Shown here piece after piece: positions 10,745-17,073 of a DNA stretch of 64,000 nucleotides. The DNA comes from an uncultured Thermoprotei archaeon (lineage in GTDB: Archaea > Thermoproteota > Thermoprotei > Thermofilales > B15-G2): positions 160,001 to 224,000 of the forward strand of contig CBDUKN010000001.1 in NCBI GenBank assembly GCA_965367815.1, written 5' to 3'. The notes under the pieces were generated by a model. It was not told the origin of the DNA and ran no database searches. It was given only the letters and a program-made list of their open reading frames with translations. Position numbers and translations under genes: made by a program. How positions within the stretch are numbered: position 1 is the first letter of the stretch; every line of letters begins with the position of its first letter.

Positions 10745-11461
10745 GTGCAAAGTTTGAGAGAAAAGGTCCTTAAGATAATTAAGAGAGCTTACTCTGAAGG
10801 AAGAAAAATTCTTCTCCCTCATGAGGCTGAGGAAATCTGCAAATGCTACGGGATTCCTGTACCAAAATCCGGTTTTGCTAAAACCGCAGAAGAAGCTGTT
10901 AAAATAGCTAGTGAAATAGGATACCCTGTTGTACTTAAAATAATTTCACCGGAAATAGTTCATAAAAGCGATGTTGGAGGAGTCGCTTTAAACTTATCTT
11001 CTCCGGAAGAAGTTAAGAAAGCTTTCGAAGAAATGCTGGAAAAAGTAAGTAAAGTTAATCCCAAGGCAAATATTCTAGGAGTCTATGTTCAAAAAATGCT
11101 ACCCAAAGGCAGTATCGAAGTAATCGTCGGAGGACTCAAAGACCAGACATTTGGTCCAGTAGTTATGTTCGGGCTAGGCGGGGTTTTCGTCGAAGTACTA
11201 GAAGACGTTACTTTTAGAGTAGCACCTCTTTCCAAGAGAGAAGCACTTGAAATGATCAAAGACATCAAAGGCTATAAAATTTTAAAAGGATTTAGAAACT
11301 TTCCTCCAAGAGATCTTGAGGCAGTAGCCGACATTATAGTGAAGGCATCGCATATAATTTACAATAACCAAGAAATAAAAGAAATGGATCTTAACCCAGT
11401 AATGGTCTACGAGAAAGGCAAAGGCGCATATGTTGTAGACGCCAGAATAATACTAGAATAA
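10745..11461 (+). CDS. ADP-forming acetate/acyl-CoA ligase beta subunit (ATP-grasp)
   Basis: IGYPVVLKIISPEIVHKSDVGGV, FGPVVMFGLGG, EMDLNP, VDARI. The GTG at 10745 is a likelier start than the 10691 ATG. Confidence 0.9.
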   Translation: MQSLREKVLKIIKRAYSEGRKILLPHEAEEICKCYGIPVPKSGFAKTAEEAVKIASEIGYPVVLKIISPEIVHKSDVGGVALNLSSPEEVKKAFEEMLEKVSKVNPKANILGVYVQKMLPKGSIEVIVGGLKDQTFGPVVMFGLGGVFVEVLEDVTFRVAPLSKREALEMIKDIKGYKILKGFRNFPPRDLEAVADIIVKASHIIYNNQEIKEMDLNPVMVYEKGKGAYVVDARIILE

Positions 11462-11465
11462 ATAC

Positions 11466-12098
11466 ATGAAATTAGACGCGTCTGTAGGGTTTTTACTGGC
11501 CTTTTCACTAAACCTAGTTTTCACATTAATGAAGAATTATGTTGCAGCCCGCATAACCTCGTATTTTATTCTCGCAACAACTATTGTCATATTTAAAGCA
11601 CGTAGCTTCAAACTAGGCTTAAATGCAGAGTCTATAGTAGCAGGACTTTTCTACTCGATTCTTCCTCACTATTTCAACCTAATGATTTTAGGTCTGGCTA
11701 ATGAAGTGTCCTTTATTGCATTAAACTCAATGCTCATTATACCAAATTTATTTACTTCTATTATAGAGGAACTCTACTTTAGAGTACTCCTTTACGATAC
11801 ACTAAAGAAAAGTTATTTTAAAACATCATTGATGTTTTCTCTATTTCATTTATCTCTTTATACTTTCAATGAAGCTATTCTTTCACTAATTTTAGTAGCA
11901 TTTTATTTTTCTCTTGGAATAATTTTTCAAGTACTGTATGAAAAGCATGGTTTTGCTGCATGTTCTACTTCTCACATAGCATTCAATATAGTTGCTTCAA
12001 TGTATTTAGTTAATTTAAAATATTTATGTTTAGCTGTAATAATATTTACAACTATGGCTACGGCTTTAATAATTAAAGAAATTATTTATAGATATTAA
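11466..12098 (+). CDS. CPBP/Abi (CAAX-protease-like) intramembrane metalloprotease
   Basis: IEELYFR, FSLFH and SHIAFN motifs in a hydrophobic protein. Confidence 0.85.
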   Translation: MKLDASVGFLLAFSLNLVFTLMKNYVAARITSYFILATTIVIFKARSFKLGLNAESIVAGLFYSILPHYFNLMILGLANEVSFIALNSMLIIPNLFTSIIEELYFRVLLYDTLKKSYFKTSLMFSLFHLSLYTFNEAILSLILVAFYFSLGIIFQVLYEKHGFAACSTSHIAFNIVASMYLVNLKYLCLAVIIFTTMATALIIKEIIYRY

Positions 12099-12143
12099 AT
12101 AAAACTTAAGTAAAAAGTAAATTTATAAAAATGAACTTATTTT

Positions 12144-13100
12144 TTAGTAAGTCTTTCCTGTGAGAGAAGCTATTGTCGGCGAGTTTACTCCAGTTGCTAT
12201 AAACATTATCTTTGGGTACTGTAACCCTTTCTCTAGTCTTAGGCCCCAGAATGTTCTCTCAATCTTATACTTACTTGTTATTATTTGGTTGGCGGCAGAT
12301 GCCTCTTCTAGAGTAGTTTTCTCAGGAGCTACTACATATATTAGAGCTGACTCAGCGTCACTGAGGTCTGCGTCAAGTAGCTTGTTTTTTATGGCATTGT
12401 TTGCCGCTTCAGATACTTTGAGTCCTACACCGTGTCCCACCATTCCTAGTCCAGAGTCTCTGCATGCCGAAATAATGTCTGCGTAGCTGATGCTAATTAA
12501 GCTTGGTTTTGTAACTAAGTCAATAATGGACTTAAGAGTACTTACAAGTATTGAGTCCATAAACTTGAAAGCGAAGTTTACTGGAATTCCTCCTATCTTA
12601 TTTAGTAGTATATCGTTTAAGTTTGTTATTGTTAAGTCTGCTACGTCAAGTATTTTAGTTAACCCGTATCTAGCGTTGTCGAGACGATTCACTCCTTCGA
12701 ATGTGAAGGGTAGTGTTACTAGTGCTATTCTTAGTGCGTCTGGGAATCTGTTTCTTAGTTCTTCTAGTAGTACTGGTATTCCTCCGCTTGCTGTACCACC
12801 ACCAAGACCACCAGTAACAATGACTACATTAGGAACTCCGATTGAGTTAATTATGCGGCTTACATCGTCTCTCATTGCTGCTTCTCCTAGACTTGGGTTT
12901 CCTCCTGTTCCATGTCCTCTTGTTATTGTTTGCCCAATTAATATTTTATTGGGTACTTTAACTGACTGTAAGTGAACAGCCTCAGTATGAACAGCAACAG
13001 CTAAAACATCTTCAGTAGCACCAACCTCATACAACCTATTCAAAGTATTACAACCACAACCACCAACACCGACAACAACTATGTTTATTCTCTCCCCCAT
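12144..13100 (-). CDS. ftsZ: FtsZ/tubulin-family GTPase, paralog C
   Basis: GVGGCGCN, IGQTITRGHGTGGNPSLG, GLGGGTASGG, PFTFEG. ATG at 13100 is preceded by SD-like GAGGGGTGA (the ORF track uses a TTG at 13115). Confidence 0.85.
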   Translation of the reverse strand: MGERINIVVVGVGGCGCNTLNRLYEVGATEDVLAVAVHTEAVHLQSVKVPNKILIGQTITRGHGTGGNPSLGEAAMRDDVSRIINSIGVPNVVIVTGGLGGGTASGGIPVLLEELRNRFPDALRIALVTLPFTFEGVNRLDNARYGLTKILDVADLTITNLNDILLNKIGGIPVNFAFKFMDSILVSTLKSIIDLVTKPSLISISYADIISACRDSGLGMVGHGVGLKVSEAANNAIKNKLLDADLSDAESALIYVVAPEKTTLEEASAANQIITSKYKIERTFWGLRLEKGLQYPKIMFIATGVNSPTIASLTGKTY

Positions 13101-13104
13101 TGTT

Positions 13105-14034
13105 TCACCCCTCAATGAATTTTGTTACCATATCAGATTTAACATTTGTTGCTATAAACCCTACTTTCGGAGACTGTACTGCCCAAGTTGGCTTGAATCC
13201 GAAATACGCGTTTACCACATTGTATTTGCTTGTTATTGTTCCTTGGATATCGAAGATATCTGATGTGCTTAAAGCAGTCTCAGTGCTTTCTACAACTACT
13301 ATTGCTCCTCTTGCATCTTTAAAGTTTAGTTCACAGTAAGGGCTCTCACAGGCCTTGATAAAGGCTTCTCTTACATTAAGTCCTTCGCCTAGCCCTATAA
13401 AGCCTAGACCTGACTTAACTGCTATTGACTTGAATACATTGAAGTCTACGTTCATTAGTCCAGGTATAGGTGTAATTTGATCCAGTGCTTTCAGTACGTA
13501 GATAGCATTTGCTATCAGTTTGTCTAAAGTACGGTATGCTCTAGGTAGAGCCATAGTTGGGTGCTTTTCTTTGAGTTTATCGTTAAAGTGTACTATAGTC
13601 ATATCCGATGATTCTATTATTTGAGGTAGAGCAGTTTTAGCATTGTTTATTCTTGGAAGAGCTTCTGTTCTGAAAGGTATAGTTACAAAAGATACTACTA
13701 GCGTATCTAACTGACTCTTAATGTTTTCTACTAGAACAGAGTGTCCTCCGCTACCTGTTCCTCCACCTAAGCCAGAGATTACAACTACTAGCTCAGAGCC
13801 TTCAATTCTCTCAACAATTTTTGGAACTAAGTTTTCGACAGCTTTTCTGCCAAGCTCCATTGAGCCCGCAGTAGATCTTCCTTCACCTACCTGCAGGACA
13901 TACTTAGCTTTAGCCGTTTTAAGAGCTAGGGAATCGGTATCTACAGCTATTGTTGTCAGGTCTTTTATATCTAGTGCAATATTGTTAAGGGCGTTTAGTC
14001 CTCTACCGCCTATACCTATTACTGATATCTTCAT
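13105..14034 (-). CDS. ftsZ: FtsZ/tubulin-family GTPase, paralog B
   Basis: GIGGRGLN, DTD, GLGGGTGSGG, PFRTE, NDKL, GLMNVDF. Confidence 0.85.
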   Translation of the reverse strand: MKISVIGIGGRGLNALNNIALDIKDLTTIAVDTDSLALKTAKAKYVLQVGEGRSTAGSMELGRKAVENLVPKIVERIEGSELVVVISGLGGGTGSGGHSVLVENIKSQLDTLVVSFVTIPFRTEALPRINNAKTALPQIIESSDMTIVHFNDKLKEKHPTMALPRAYRTLDKLIANAIYVLKALDQITPIPGLMNVDFNVFKSIAVKSGLGFIGLGEGLNVREAFIKACESPYCELNFKDARGAIVVVESTETALSTSDIFDIQGTITSKYNVVNAYFGFKPTWAVQSPKVGFIATNVKSDMVTKFIEG

Positions 14035-14035
14035 A

Positions 14036-15043
14036 CTATCTCGCCTCCAGGAATTGTTCTACTAAGGGGGATTTAACACTTGCCACTAATAACATTACTT
14101 GCGGATTGTGCACCCTCCAATTATACCTGACGCCCCAATACACAGTGCCTATACCGTATTTTTCACTGAGTATTCTTGGGACTTCCTCAATTTCTCTAAG
14201 GGAAAGCATGCTTCTAGTGCCTTCAGCGTAAACTACAGCTCCCCTAGCACCACTTAAGTCTGCTTCACAGTAGTTTTTAGCTAGAGCTTCTTCAAATGCG
14301 TCAATAAAGCGCAGGCCAGAGCCTATGCCAACAAAGCCGAGTCCACTTTCTCTCGTTAATCTCTCGATGTTAGAGAAGTCTATATTAACTAAACCTGGCT
14401 CAGGTTTGAGTCCCTGCAGCTTAGTTAATCCATTAATTAAATCTACTAGGTGTTTATCCATTTCTCTAAATGCCTGTTGAATGCTATATGCGCCTACTTT
14501 TTCCTTAAGAATATCATTAAAGTTAACTAAAGTCATATCAGCTAAATCGAGTAACTCAGATAGAGCCATTTGAGCATTCTGGATACGTTCAATACCTTCT
14601 GAGGAGAAGGGTATTGTTACTACTGCCCAGACAAGTCTATTCTTCATGTTTTCTTTTATGTATTCTGCTAGTGCTAGTATTCCTCCTGTTCCTGTACCGC
14701 CGCCGAGACCAGCAGTAAGAATATACAGCTCAGCATCCTTGACTGGGGCAAGGACTTTGTCTACTTCGCGGCTCATTATCTCTCTACCAAGAGCAGGACT
14801 ACCAGCACTACCACGACCACGAGTAACAGTCTCACCAATCAATACACGGTACTTAGCTCTAGTCACACTTAAGGCTGCTGCGTCAGTATTTACAGCAACT
14901 GTAGGTACTTGTATTCCAGCATTAGTTAAGTTAGTTATGGTGTTACATCCACATCCTCCTATACCGATTATGGCCATTTTTAAAATCGCTCTCCTTGCTA
15001 ATGTTTCGGCAAGTGTTCTGTCTTCAATAAATCTCCTCGACAC
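14036..15043 (-). CDS. ftsZ: FtsZ/tubulin-family GTPase, paralog A
   Basis: GIGGCGCN, AVNTD, IGETVTRGRGSAGSPALG, TAGLGGGTGTGG, PFSSEG, GLVNIDF. Confidence 0.9.
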   Translation of the reverse strand: MSRRFIEDRTLAETLARRAILKMAIIGIGGCGCNTITNLTNAGIQVPTVAVNTDAAALSVTRAKYRVLIGETVTRGRGSAGSPALGREIMSREVDKVLAPVKDAELYILTAGLGGGTGTGGILALAEYIKENMKNRLVWAVVTIPFSSEGIERIQNAQMALSELLDLADMTLVNFNDILKEKVGAYSIQQAFREMDKHLVDLINGLTKLQGLKPEPGLVNIDFSNIERLTRESGLGFVGIGSGLRFIDAFEEALAKNYCEADLSGARGAVVYAEGTRSMLSLREIEEVPRILSEKYGIGTVYWGVRYNWRVHNPQVMLLVASVKSPLVEQFLEAR

Positions 15044-15062
15044 GTATATTACCTTGAAATAA

Positions 15063-15078
15063 CTTTAAAAACTTTGCC
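15063..15078 (-). promoter_or_regulatory. Putative BRE/TATA of the ftsZ-like operon
   Basis: Minus strand reads GGCAAAGT-TTTTAAAG, with the TATA-like part about 20-27 bp upstream of the GTG at 15043. Confidence 0.4.
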
Positions 15079-15127
15079 GTTAATCTTATGTGCACTTGGA
15101 ATCTCTTAAAAATAGCCGAAGTATGTT

Positions 15128-16375
15128 TTATAGTCTTGAAATAACTTCGAAATTTTCTTCGGGAGTATTACTGAATGAAAAGAAATATAGTCCCTTGGGA
15201 TTGATCTTGAGAGCTTCTTTAATCGCGTCGAGTAGTCTCCTCGGAGGATTATACACTATGCTTGGATCATATCCTGAGTAAAGACCTACATATATTCTGG
15301 AGGGGTCGATGTATTCTGCCACCTTTAGAGCTTCTCTTGAAGCTATTTCAGGTGGAAGACCATAGTACTCGAAGTCTTTAACGCTACTAGGCTTATTTAC
15401 TCCAAGCAAATGCGATATTGTCTCAAGTAGTAGATCTTCGTACTCCCATCCTACTCGGTCTAGTATTGACTTAATGTACTTTGTCTCCCAGGCACCCATT
15501 CTAGCAGTATATATCATAGGCTTAACTGTATCCAAGACTTCTCTGAGGAGAGAGTAGTCTTGTCCCACCTGCCAGGAGAGAGTAGGATAGAAGAGGTCTG
15601 CACTCAAAGCGACGCCGCTTTTTTCGACACTTTCCTTAATGAAAGCTATGAGTTCTTTTACGCTTTCTGCTCTGAAGCGAAGCCAGTCTGCTACTTCAGG
15701 ATGCTCTAAGTAAAATCTGTTTAAGTCTCCAGTGCTGCCGAGGAACATTTTTAGATACTTTAAGTTTTCGTGGCTAGTTTCAGATATTGTTTTAAACATT
15801 TCGATAATTTTTTCGAAAGATTTCCAATCTAATCCTTTTTCTACTGCTTTTTCTCTGCAGAAACTACAGTAGCAGTGACGCCCTATTAGCAGGTGTGTTG
15901 GCAGAAGAAATCCTTCGCGGCTACGCTTAAACCTAATGTAGTCTAACTCAACTTCATCTACCTCATATTCGTAGGCAATATTTTCGGCTAGTCCTCTGAG
16001 GTACTTTTGGACATCAGGATTGTTTGGGCACAAGGCTCTGGGGTGCGGGCTTCCTCTAAAGTCTATTAATCTGCATTCAGGGTTCTTTTCTGCATGAAGA
16101 GGGTCTACTACACAGACCACAGTGGCAGTAAGCTTTAATCCATATTCTCTTGAAGCCTCGACACACTCCGCTAAAAGATCTCTTTTACAGCCTTTTACGG
16201 GCTTAAGTTTAGTTTCGGTAAAATATTTGTCTTTAGGCTTGAAAAACACTTTACCTTCAGCTACTACGAATATAGATGCTCTCGAAACATTGTATTTAGC
16301 TAGTTTCTCGAAGACCTTATCGGCGGTTTTCTCGTAAATATCTCTCCAGCTTACCCAGAACCCTACTTCAACCAC
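15128..16375 (-). CDS. Putative glycoside hydrolase-like TIM-barrel protein (GHL10/DUF187-like)
   Basis: DLLAECVEASREYGL, LCPNNPDV, VELDYIRF, CYCSFC, GQDY, PMIY. Confidence 0.65.
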   Translation of the reverse strand: MVEVGFWVSWRDIYEKTADKVFEKLAKYNVSRASIFVVAEGKVFFKPKDKYFTETKLKPVKGCKRDLLAECVEASREYGLKLTATVVCVVDPLHAEKNPECRLIDFRGSPHPRALCPNNPDVQKYLRGLAENIAYEYEVDEVELDYIRFKRSREGFLLPTHLLIGRHCYCSFCREKAVEKGLDWKSFEKIIEMFKTISETSHENLKYLKMFLGSTGDLNRFYLEHPEVADWLRFRAESVKELIAFIKESVEKSGVALSADLFYPTLSWQVGQDYSLLREVLDTVKPMIYTARMGAWETKYIKSILDRVGWEYEDLLLETISHLLGVNKPSSVKDFEYYGLPPEIASREALKVAEYIDPSRIYVGLYSGYDPSIVYNPPRRLLDAIKEALKINPKGLYFFSFSNTPEENFEVISRL

Positions 16376-16404
16376 ATTTTAAATTTGCTGTCACAGAAAT
16401 AAAC

Positions 16405-17073
16405 TTAAGTCTTTTTACAGTAGGCACAAATATCTTTTAATGGACATTCGCTGCACTTAGGTTTTCTTGGCTTGCAGTATTTTCTTCCGACTAAAATTAG
16501 CCTTACGTGGGCTTCCTTGTAGTCTTTGGGGTCGAAGACTTCTAGCAAGGCTTGTCTAACCGGCTCGTAGCCCTGTTTACTGCTTAAACCTAAGCGTACT
16601 GCGACTCTCATAGCGTGGGTGTCGACAGCTATAGTTGGCTTACCCATTAGCTGCAGGAGAAGATCTGCGGTCTTGAGTCCGACTCCTTTAAAGCTAGTTA
16701 GATACCGTCTAGCTTCTTCTAGGCTCATTTCTTTCAGTTTTTTGAAATCGAGTCTATTTTCTAAGACAGCTTCAGCAAGCTGCTTTATTACATATGCTTT
16801 CTGACGATAAAGCCCCGCAGGCTTAATTGCTTCCTCGATGTCTTCTAGCTTAGTAGACGCTATTTTCTCTGGTGTAACGCCTATTTTCTTCTCGAGATTA
16901 TCGTATGCTTTTATAGAATTTTTATCACTTGTATTCTGTGAAAGAACTATTGAAACTAGGAGCTTAAAGAGGTCTCGGCCGTAATTTTCTTCAACCCAGA
17001 AAACAATAAAATCTCTGCTAGTATACTTCAGGTACTTTGTTTTCTCGAGAATAAGGCTTCCTAGCTTACTCAC
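16405..17073 (-). CDS. nth: Endonuclease III (HhH-GPD DNA glycosylase)
   Basis: LSQNTSD, GVGLKTAD, AVDTH and C-x6-C-x2-C-x5-C FeS motif. Confidence 0.92.
   Translation of the reverse strand: MSKLGSLILEKTKYLKYTSRDFIVFWVEENYGRDLFKLLVSIVLSQNTSDKNSIKAYDNLEKKIGVTPEKIASTKLEDIEEAIKPAGLYRQKAYVIKQLAEAVLENRLDFKKLKEMSLEEARRYLTSFKGVGLKTADLLLQLMGKPTIAVDTHAMRVAVRLGLSSKQGYEPVRQALLEVFDPKDYKEAHVRLILVGRKYCKPRKPKCSECPLKDICAYCKKT

Follow-up and report, generated by a model that had tools for sequence, protein, structure and literature searches.

Organisation of the FtsZ-like gene trio

The 64,000-nucleotide (nt) stretch analysed here (the window, positions 160,001 to 224,000 of contig CBDUKN010000001.1 from the genome of an uncultured Thermoprotei archaeon, G000) contains three tandem FtsZ-like genes on the minus strand between positions 12144 and 15043. 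An earlier note on this DNA had recognised three FtsZ paralogs in this interval; the open reading frames (ORFs) are found at exactly these coordinates, and their products match the Pfam family PF00091 and FtsZ of M. jannaschii (Mj FtsZ). Paralog A (family A/P3, 14036-15043) begins with a GTG codon and encodes a tail-less FtsZ-like protein of 335 amino acids (aa), paralog B (family B/P4, 13105-14034) encodes a 309-aa protein that is the most divergent of the trio, and paralog C (family C/P5, 12144-13115) encodes 323 aa if translated from the TTG at 13115. The genes share one orientation and are closely packed, with a gap of one base between A and B in the ORF reading of the window. The true start of C is probably the ATG at 13100 (318 aa) rather than the TTG, since this ATG, located four bases past the stop codon of B, is preceded by GAGGGGTGA and orthologs such as P0001 start at the equivalent position.

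All three products belong to the tubulin/FtsZ superfamily, as their matches to the Pfam domain Tubulin/FtsZ PF00091 have E-values of 4e-32 (A), 1.9e-26 (B) and 1e-34 (C) and scores of 112.5, 94.0 and 120.9 bits, against a gathering cut-off of 33. The scores obtained with the NCBIfam model TIGR00065 (188.6, 148.1 and 227.4 bits) are all below its cut-off of 295.2, which places the proteins outside the canonical FtsZ equivalog. The closest solved structure for each is Mj FtsZ (1W58/1FSZ/1W5E), with E-values of 1.1e-49 for A, 6.7e-33 for B and 4.2e-56 for C. The three proteins end within about ten residues of the end of the globular-domain alignment with Mj FtsZ, leaving no room for the flexible linker and the C-terminal peptide that in canonical FtsZ serves the membrane anchor (SepF/FtsA), and are 309-335 aa long, compared with 345-412 aa for canonical FtsZ of the phylum. 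A mobile or plasmid-partition (TubZ-like) origin is rejected, as the neighbours are housekeeping genes syntenic with those of G001, the second genome of the genus, and the best matches in the Protein Data Bank (PDB) are FtsZ and not TubZ/RepX (4EI7, E 3e-7).

T7 loops and nucleotide-binding motifs

In FtsZ, the T7 loop (GXXNXD...) enters the GTP pocket of the next subunit and starts hydrolysis, and the residues N207, D209 and D212 are highly conserved, as described in a section of PMC8456036. HMMER alignments place GLINVDFAD of Mj FtsZ over GLVNIDFSN of A, GLMNVDFNV of B and SLISISYAD of C, thus providing the comparison with canonical FtsZ that the earlier note had called for and putting the T7 loops in register. 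The loop of A (N220-I-D222-F-S-N225, 14369-14386, minus strand) has Asn in place of the last catalytic Asp, and that of B (N195-V-D197-F-N-V200, 13435-13452, minus strand) has Val at this position. In the loop of C (S208-I-S210-Y-A-D213, 12477-12494, minus strand) the Asn and the first Asp are gone and the last Asp is retained.

The nucleotide pockets are altered as well. In C, the T2 motif NTD is replaced by HTE (12981-12989, minus strand), of which H43 and E45 are invariant in an 11-row alignment of the C family. The T3 loop of B, VGEGRSTAG (13864-13890, minus strand), is four residues shorter than that of Mj FtsZ; this deletion is confined to B of the window type and the corresponding G001 protein, an ortholog, whereas the replacement of GxGAGG by GRSTAG runs throughout the whole B family. 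Further changes in the pocket of B are the T1 sequence GGRGLN and the T5 sequence TEA (TE[A/S] in the family). The T4 sequences GGGTGTG of A and GGGTGSG of B match the signature GGGTG[ST]G, and GGGTASG of C represents a family-wide Gly to Ala variant. All three paralogs retain T1 and a T4 signature. The motifs listed in the earlier note (NIDFSN, NVDFNV, SISYAD, HTE and VGEGRSTAG) are all reproduced by translation of the window coordinates.

A second locus and the five-family cluster

The host genome, which is 99.4% complete, encodes eight PF00091 proteins, namely the window trio and five encoded in tandem on contig C25. The latter are part of a seven-gene locus (L009, minus strand, 11522 to 6013) with the order P1-P2-sX-A'-PRC barrel-B'-C', in which the products are 329, 340, 97, 338, 79, 318 and 320 aa long, respectively, and neighbouring genes are separated by 4-10 bases or overlap. 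The PRC-barrel protein is identified by its match to PF05239 (E 3e-9). The identical seven-gene order occurs in genome G463 (L117) and, in pieces, in G461, which was reached via a locus titled Candidatus Korarchaeum sp. (L040). As a gene arrangement the cluster is already published for Korarchaeum: in the portions consulted, Moriscot 2011 (PMC3132758) and Nussbaum 2023 (10.1101/2023.03.28.534543), both citing Elkins et al. 2008, describe for Candidatus Korarchaeum (cryptofilum) a cluster of seven genes, among them five ftsZ paralogs and one PRC-barrel (MTH1859-like) gene; the comparison with K. cryptofilum made here is by this description only.

The window locus consists of A-B-C alone and has no P1, P2, small protein or PRC-barrel gene. 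The window trio is a partial duplicate of the last three FtsZ genes of the cluster. The duplication predates the genus, since G001 shares both the A-B(-C) locus and its upstream neighbours (L012). Cluster composition varies in other genomes. G462 carries P1-P2-sX-A-C, without B or a PRC gene, and G057 and G287 have four FtsZ genes each, corresponding to P1, P2 and C plus a third gene on a very long branch.

Phylogeny of the paralog families

A maximum-likelihood tree of 78 rows (a quick IQ-TREE run, LG+C20, rooted on 26 canonical FtsZ) supports five families, with SH-aLRT values of 99 for P1, 99 for P2, 97 for A, 99 for B and 95 for C. The window proteins A, B and C fall inside three of the five families of the Korarchaeum cluster, grouping with members 3, 4 and 5 of G463/G461 (SH-aLRT 97, 99 and 95). 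Each family has members from the Korarchaeum-titled G461/G463, from G003 and G462, and from the Thermoprotei-type G000/G001. The cluster proteins, joined by a few other FtsZ-like proteins that form a small group sister to them, are set apart from all canonical FtsZ (SH-aLRT 99). Among the cluster proteins, P1 and C group together (97), as do P2, A, B and the long-branched third genes (99), although the placement of the long-branched rows G057_3, G287_2 and G287_3 is uncertain in this tree. The same families were recovered in a separate tree of 65 rows.

For G003, an order-level relative, the tree places the cluster genes of every one of the five families in a tight group with their counterparts from the Korarchaeum-titled genomes. 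These G003 genes reside on the short contigs C132 and C35 (L014 and L015; 2.8 and 14.3 kb), and the pattern suggests horizontal transfer or mis-binning of these contigs. Three top matches of the representative search, P0188, P0190 and P0191 (744-840 aa), were discarded as unrelated to the cluster families, since each consists of two complete canonical FtsZ domains in tandem with NxDxxD in both.

Family-specific conservation of the T7 variants

The T7 loops of 41 cluster proteins from the loci were compared with those of 21 canonical FtsZ from the phylum sample. The N-x-D-x-x-D motif was present in 21/21 canonical FtsZ and in 0/41 cluster proteins, each family of which has its own variant. P1 proteins carry [R/H]-x-D-x-x-D (7/7, no exceptions) and form the only family with both T7 aspartates. 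N-x-D-x-x-N is found in P2 (7/8, the exception being SIDFSD of G287) and in A (7/8, with SIDFSN of G462 as the exception), and N-V-D-F-x-[V/S/I] in B (7/7, no exceptions). The C family has [S/G]-x-[S/G]-x-x-D (9/9, no exceptions), and the two long-branched third genes encode AVDFTH and RIDFPT. In a database-derived alignment of C, with orthologs down to 53% identity, S-x-[S/G]-x-x-D occurs in 17/17 family rows, HTE in all 16 rows covering the site and GGGTASG in all rows. The gene of G287 corresponding to B has a degenerate T4 (GRGMGS-S).

The earlier note had proposed a complementary loss of catalytic residues across the three paralogs of the window. The asymmetry of their T7 loops holds, while the idea of three proteins forming a closed set does not. 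The trio lacks P1 and P2, and the genome contains eight paralogs belonging to five ancient families, so the complementary loss is really a five-family pattern.

The substitutions recur in orthologs down to 44-53% identity. Nei-Gojobori dN/dS ratios for orthologs of G000 and G001 are 0.019 for A, 0.036 for B and 0.019-0.059 for P1, P2, A', B' and C' (seven pairs), values that are rough because dS is saturated (pS about 0.57-0.73; dN 0.03-0.10). The genes compared are under purifying selection. Random rather than conserved T7 substitutions among orthologs had been set in advance as the sign of simple decay, and the result is the opposite: the T7 changes are fixed family by family, from Thermoprotei-titled to Korarchaeum-titled metagenome-assembled genomes, with dN/dS of 0.02-0.06. 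This conservation and the low dN/dS indicate that the substitutions are maintained and do not reflect decay.

The putative contact faces are also family-specific. Identity in T3, on the top face, is 0.59-0.80 within families and 0.42 between them; in T7-H8, on the bottom face, it is 0.40-0.78 within and 0.29 between, compared with 0.48-0.62 and 0.34, respectively, for the whole proteins.

Members of the B family are rare, with five 90%-identity clusters among 5.8 billion proteins in a search dependent on shared words. When A was searched exhaustively with phmmer against 1.84 billion representatives, no more than a few additional 50% clusters belonging to the cluster families came to light. A literature search covering the main texts of a limited collection of papers found no analysis of the T7 loops of this cluster in print. 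What is new here is the set of complementary T7 variants conserved by family, the partial A-B-C duplicate, and the occurrence of the system in a genome of Thermoprotei type in which neither canonical FtsZ nor SepF was matched.

Identical tracts and assembly check

Two tracts of the trio are 100% identical to the second locus: 362 nt over the N-terminal domain of C (12718-13079), shared with C' (L009 6587-6948), and 214 nt over the T3-T4 region of A (14645-14858), shared with A' (L009 8800-9013). The flanks of these tracts are 60-70% identical between the loci, B and B' share no identical tract, and the T7 loops lie outside both. Coverage of 11000-16500 by unitigs of four runs, drawn from four studies, is complete; the unitigs break exactly at the identical tracts, where their depth is raised. 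Because they break and gain depth at these points, the tracts are real repeats and not chimeras of one assembly, although unitigs cannot prove which flank joins which across the 362-nt repeat. The tracts reflect gene conversion limited to the N-terminal portion, which binds the nucleotide and forms the top face, in both C/C' and A/A'. Some database orthologs, P0003 among them, appear to be mosaics of both C types.

These data also bear on the possibility that the T7 changes are the decay of redundant duplicates or an artefact of assembly. One genome with eight paralogs offers redundancy, and identical tracts shared by two loci could mislead assemblers. However, all reading frames are intact, dN/dS ratios are 0.019-0.059, the same substitutions are found in orthologs of only 44-53% identity, synteny of the trio and its flanks extends to G001 (L012), and the region is tiled by unitigs of four runs from four studies. 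We regard this explanation as scarcely credible.

A possible heteromeric filament

The pattern of T7 variants recalls tubulin. In the parts of PMC13394414 consulted, E254 of alpha-tubulin is catalytic, K254 of beta-tubulin leaves the GTP of alpha-tubulin unhydrolysed, and the same logic is applied to K248 of the Asgard protein AtubA. The analogy with alpha- and beta-tubulin drawn in the earlier note is borne out as far as likeness goes, the NxDxx[N/V] loops of A and B showing the same kind of change as the non-catalytic K254 of beta-tubulin relative to E254 of alpha-tubulin. P2, A and B look beta-like because they keep N-x-D and have lost the last acidic residue.

A heteromeric filament with a tubulin-like division of labour among the T7 loops is suggested by these sequences, and we consider the chances for and against it to be about evenly balanced. 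A, B and C, probably co-transcribed, are members of an ancient system of five tail-less, FtsZ-derived families, whose paralogs would co-assemble head to tail in heteromeric protofilaments, each T7 loop being specialised for the GTP pocket of its neighbour. P1 ([R/H]xDxxD), with both catalytic aspartates, would trigger hydrolysis, while P2, A and B (NxDxx[N/V/S]), which like beta-tubulin are without the last aspartate, would provide non-hydrolysing structural interfaces, and the interface under C would perhaps support weak hydrolysis. C, with SxSxxD as the most degenerate loop, probably sits on B, which has the most degenerate nucleotide pocket; this pairing is suggested by the match between the degenerate loop and the degenerate pocket and by the adjacency of the two genes. 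That the subunit order follows the gene order is a guess. The trio alone, having no P1-type subunit, would form stable, slow or non-hydrolysing polymers, and together with P1 and P2 from C25 it could form a filament isoform. A heteromeric protofilament fits the family-specific conserved faces, the fixed gene order, the tight translational packing and the split of T7 types. Homology, alignment register, the families, their conservation and selection, and the order of the genes are established here, while co-assembly, the order of subunits, the consequences for GTPase activity and the cellular role are inferred.

As for this role, G000 yielded no match to canonical FtsZ, SepF, CdvA or Snf7 (ESCRT-III) in profile searches, the Snf7 profile being weak even on a Sulfolobus control, where it scored below the cut-off; the genome encodes one actin-family protein. 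The same searches gave no SepF or Snf7 matches in G001 and G057. A role in division or cell shape is suggested by the PRC-barrel gene embedded in the full cluster, since the PRC-barrel proteins CdpB1-3 take part in the FtsZ-based division of Haloferax and act at its division ring, according to the portions consulted of two reports (10.1101/2023.03.28.534520; 10.1101/2023.03.28.534543), in the first of which Zhao et al. note a PRC gene beside genes of the FtsZ machinery in only one of 524 genomes. How related archaea without FtsZ and without ESCRT divide is described as a puzzle in passages of PMC9723716 and 10.1101/2023.03.28.534520.

Several observations weigh against a five-family filament serving in division. 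The trio is separate from P1, P2, sX and the PRC gene and may act on its own. The cluster differs in composition in G462, G057 and G287, so a fixed five-subunit protomer cannot be universal. The T7 assignments have exceptions, SIDFSD in P2 of G287 and SIDFSN in A of G462; moreover, P1 does not have the conserved Asn, which means that no paralog has a fully canonical T7, and every interface may simply be slow. Heteromeric contact itself is suggested by sequence only. In the host, the weakness of the Snf7 profile lessens the value of its negative result. In G287 and G463 the cluster coexists with canonical FtsZ and SepF, and this speaks for a function apart from primary division in these two genomes. 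Most relatives of the same order and class are without the cluster, which was detected in 4/120 genomes of the class and in 0/23 genomes of the largest family of the order; of 401 genomes sampled from the phylum, only G000, G057 and G287 showed tandem arrays. This patchy distribution makes it probable that the system is not a universal division machine of the class.

Alternatively, the paralogs might assemble separately, each into a homopolymer that turns over little or no GTP; such separate stable filaments would have distinct jobs in shape, division or positioning, with the operon providing co-regulation only. Haloarchaea, with their multiple CetZ paralogs, offer a model for such an arrangement. 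It would agree with the retention of T1 and T4 signatures in all three proteins, which makes nucleotide binding plausible, with the variation of the cluster by lineage, in which B or A is dispensable, and with the existence of a trio without P1 and P2. However, if A, B or C polymerised only with itself, every interface would lack an intact catalytic T7, and hetero-contacts are a better fit to the family-specific T3 and T7-H8 faces, to the invariant gene order and to the close coupling of the genes in distant lineages; to our knowledge, CetZ genes are not arranged in one operon. Separate homopolymers are therefore the less probable arrangement, though one to be taken seriously.

Another possibility is that A, B and C are not filament builders and instead cap or regulate the polymer of a different paralog, for example P1. 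The missing catalytic residues of T7 would suit such a function, and T7 mutants of E. coli FtsZ are dominant inhibitors that poison polymer ends. Three or four different regulators for a single filament former, all conserved with dN/dS of 0.02-0.06 and with presumably equal dosage from the operon, would nevertheless be unparsimonious, and P1 too is without the canonical Asn, which leaves this function quite improbable.

The heteromeric filament can be taken further, to a form that we consider speculative and rather unlikely. The five families would make up a defined hetero-oligomeric protomer in the gene order P1-P2-A-B-C, in which the catalytic T7 of P1 closes onto C and the degenerate T7 of C rests on the degenerate pocket of B. 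It would polymerise in the manner of a 'five-subunit tubulin', and each protomer would have a single interface at which GTP is hydrolysed. Tethered via the PRC barrel and the N-terminally basic small protein, the filament would serve as a division or shape machine in Thermoprotei-type archaea that yield no canonical FtsZ, SepF or ESCRT-III. The trio would then represent an alternative A-B-C module (isotype), with gene conversion keeping its faces compatible with the single-copy P1 and P2.

How a homopolymeric protein of the FtsZ type gave rise to a tubulin-like heteropolymer, with its catalytic and non-catalytic subunits, is a central problem in the evolution of the cytoskeleton. The cluster would provide an independent prokaryotic case with multiple paralogs, in which the T7 loops are split between Asp-keeping (P1 and C) and beta-tubulin-like (P2, A and B) types, a split that is conserved among distantly related archaea. 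Because the proteins are small, look soluble and come from a thermophile, the hypothesis is directly testable in vitro.

Relation to known systems

The trio belongs to the same superfamily as alpha/beta-tubulin and its prokaryotic counterparts, Asgard AtubA/B and BtubA/B, and its paralogs are likewise encoded side by side. As described in the consulted portions of the literature, the last T7 residue of alpha/beta-tubulin is acidic and catalytic in one partner only, and A and B lose the last acidic residue as beta-tubulin does. Overall, the trio is FtsZ-like and not tubulin-like, with PDB E-values of 1e-4 to 1e-7 for tubulins versus 1e-33 to 1e-56 for FtsZ. Tubulins form pairs of partners, whereas five families are present here. 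We know of no tubulin counterpart of the SxSxxD pattern of C.

With the canonical archaeal system of FtsZ1/FtsZ2, SepF and CdpB the trio has the globular FtsZ fold in common, and the full cluster adds a PRC-barrel partner; the trio differs in its TIGR00065 scores below the cut-off, its non-NxDxxD T7 loops, the absence of linker and tail, and its position in a separate clade. The Korarchaeum-titled G463 combines the cluster with canonical FtsZ and SepF, in contrast to the window host with no match for either. CetZ likewise provides multiple non-division paralogs of the FtsZ superfamily in one archaeon. Membership of the trio in CetZ is rejected, as the PDB entries 4B45, 4B46 and 3ZID, which we take to be CetZ, match far worse (E 1e-5 to 1e-15) than FtsZ (1e-33 to 1e-56). 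A clade of FtsZ-like proteins from Culexarchaeia and 'unclassified Thermoproteia' is described in a part of PMC9723716 as having one homolog per genome and branching between FtsZ2 and CetZ. Compared by this description only, it also comprises non-canonical FtsZ-like proteins in TACK lineages otherwise without FtsZ.

Flanking and associated features

A TATA-box-like sequence, TTTTTAAA (15064-15071, minus strand), situated some 24 nt ahead of where A starts, is a possible promoter of a leaderless A-B-C transcript, and the T-rich stretch following the stop codon of C (12100-12143, minus strand) is a possible terminator, both judged by reading the sequence. Directly upstream of A is a gene encoding a DUF4015 protein (putative glycosyl hydrolase, window 15128-16375). 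It is missing at the equivalent place in the G001 locus L012, where an endonuclease III gene abuts A.

A gene for a small protein of the sX type (78-101 aa) comes after P2 in those clusters for which the sequence at this point was read (L009 9204-9497; L011 7943-8233; L016 7024-7299; L017 4416-4652; L117 6301-6606; L118 5757-6020; L120 30-329). The protein has the N-terminal sequence M..LF.RKKK, a Pro/Gln-rich linker and a four-helix domain predicted with confidence (AF2 pLDDT 83.9). Searches with sX gave no match in Pfam, no usable match in the ESM Atlas and no PDB fold match at E <= 0.001. That its predicted architecture resembles a membrane tether such as SepF is only an idea. The PRC-barrel protein (79-85 aa) is encoded between A and B in full clusters (L009 7947-8186; L011 9250-9489; L117 7592-7849; L119 785-1021) and is absent from the window trio, G057, G287 and G462. 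A second PRC-barrel gene of G000 is located at C5:53991-54182.

The clusters of three genomes are adjoined by a gene for a conserved protein of 92-95 aa (34-37% identity; L009 5715-6002; L015 2654-2935; L117 10827-11105), next to which, in L015 and L117, there is also a gene for a protein of 442-471 aa that weakly matches ABC_transp_aux. Finally, a 258-aa protein is encoded 1.2 kb downstream of the seven-gene cluster of G000 (L009 4062-4838). It comprises an N-terminal coiled coil, with weak ZapB-like and other coiled-coil matches, a charged linker and a C-terminal region, and is a possible partner.

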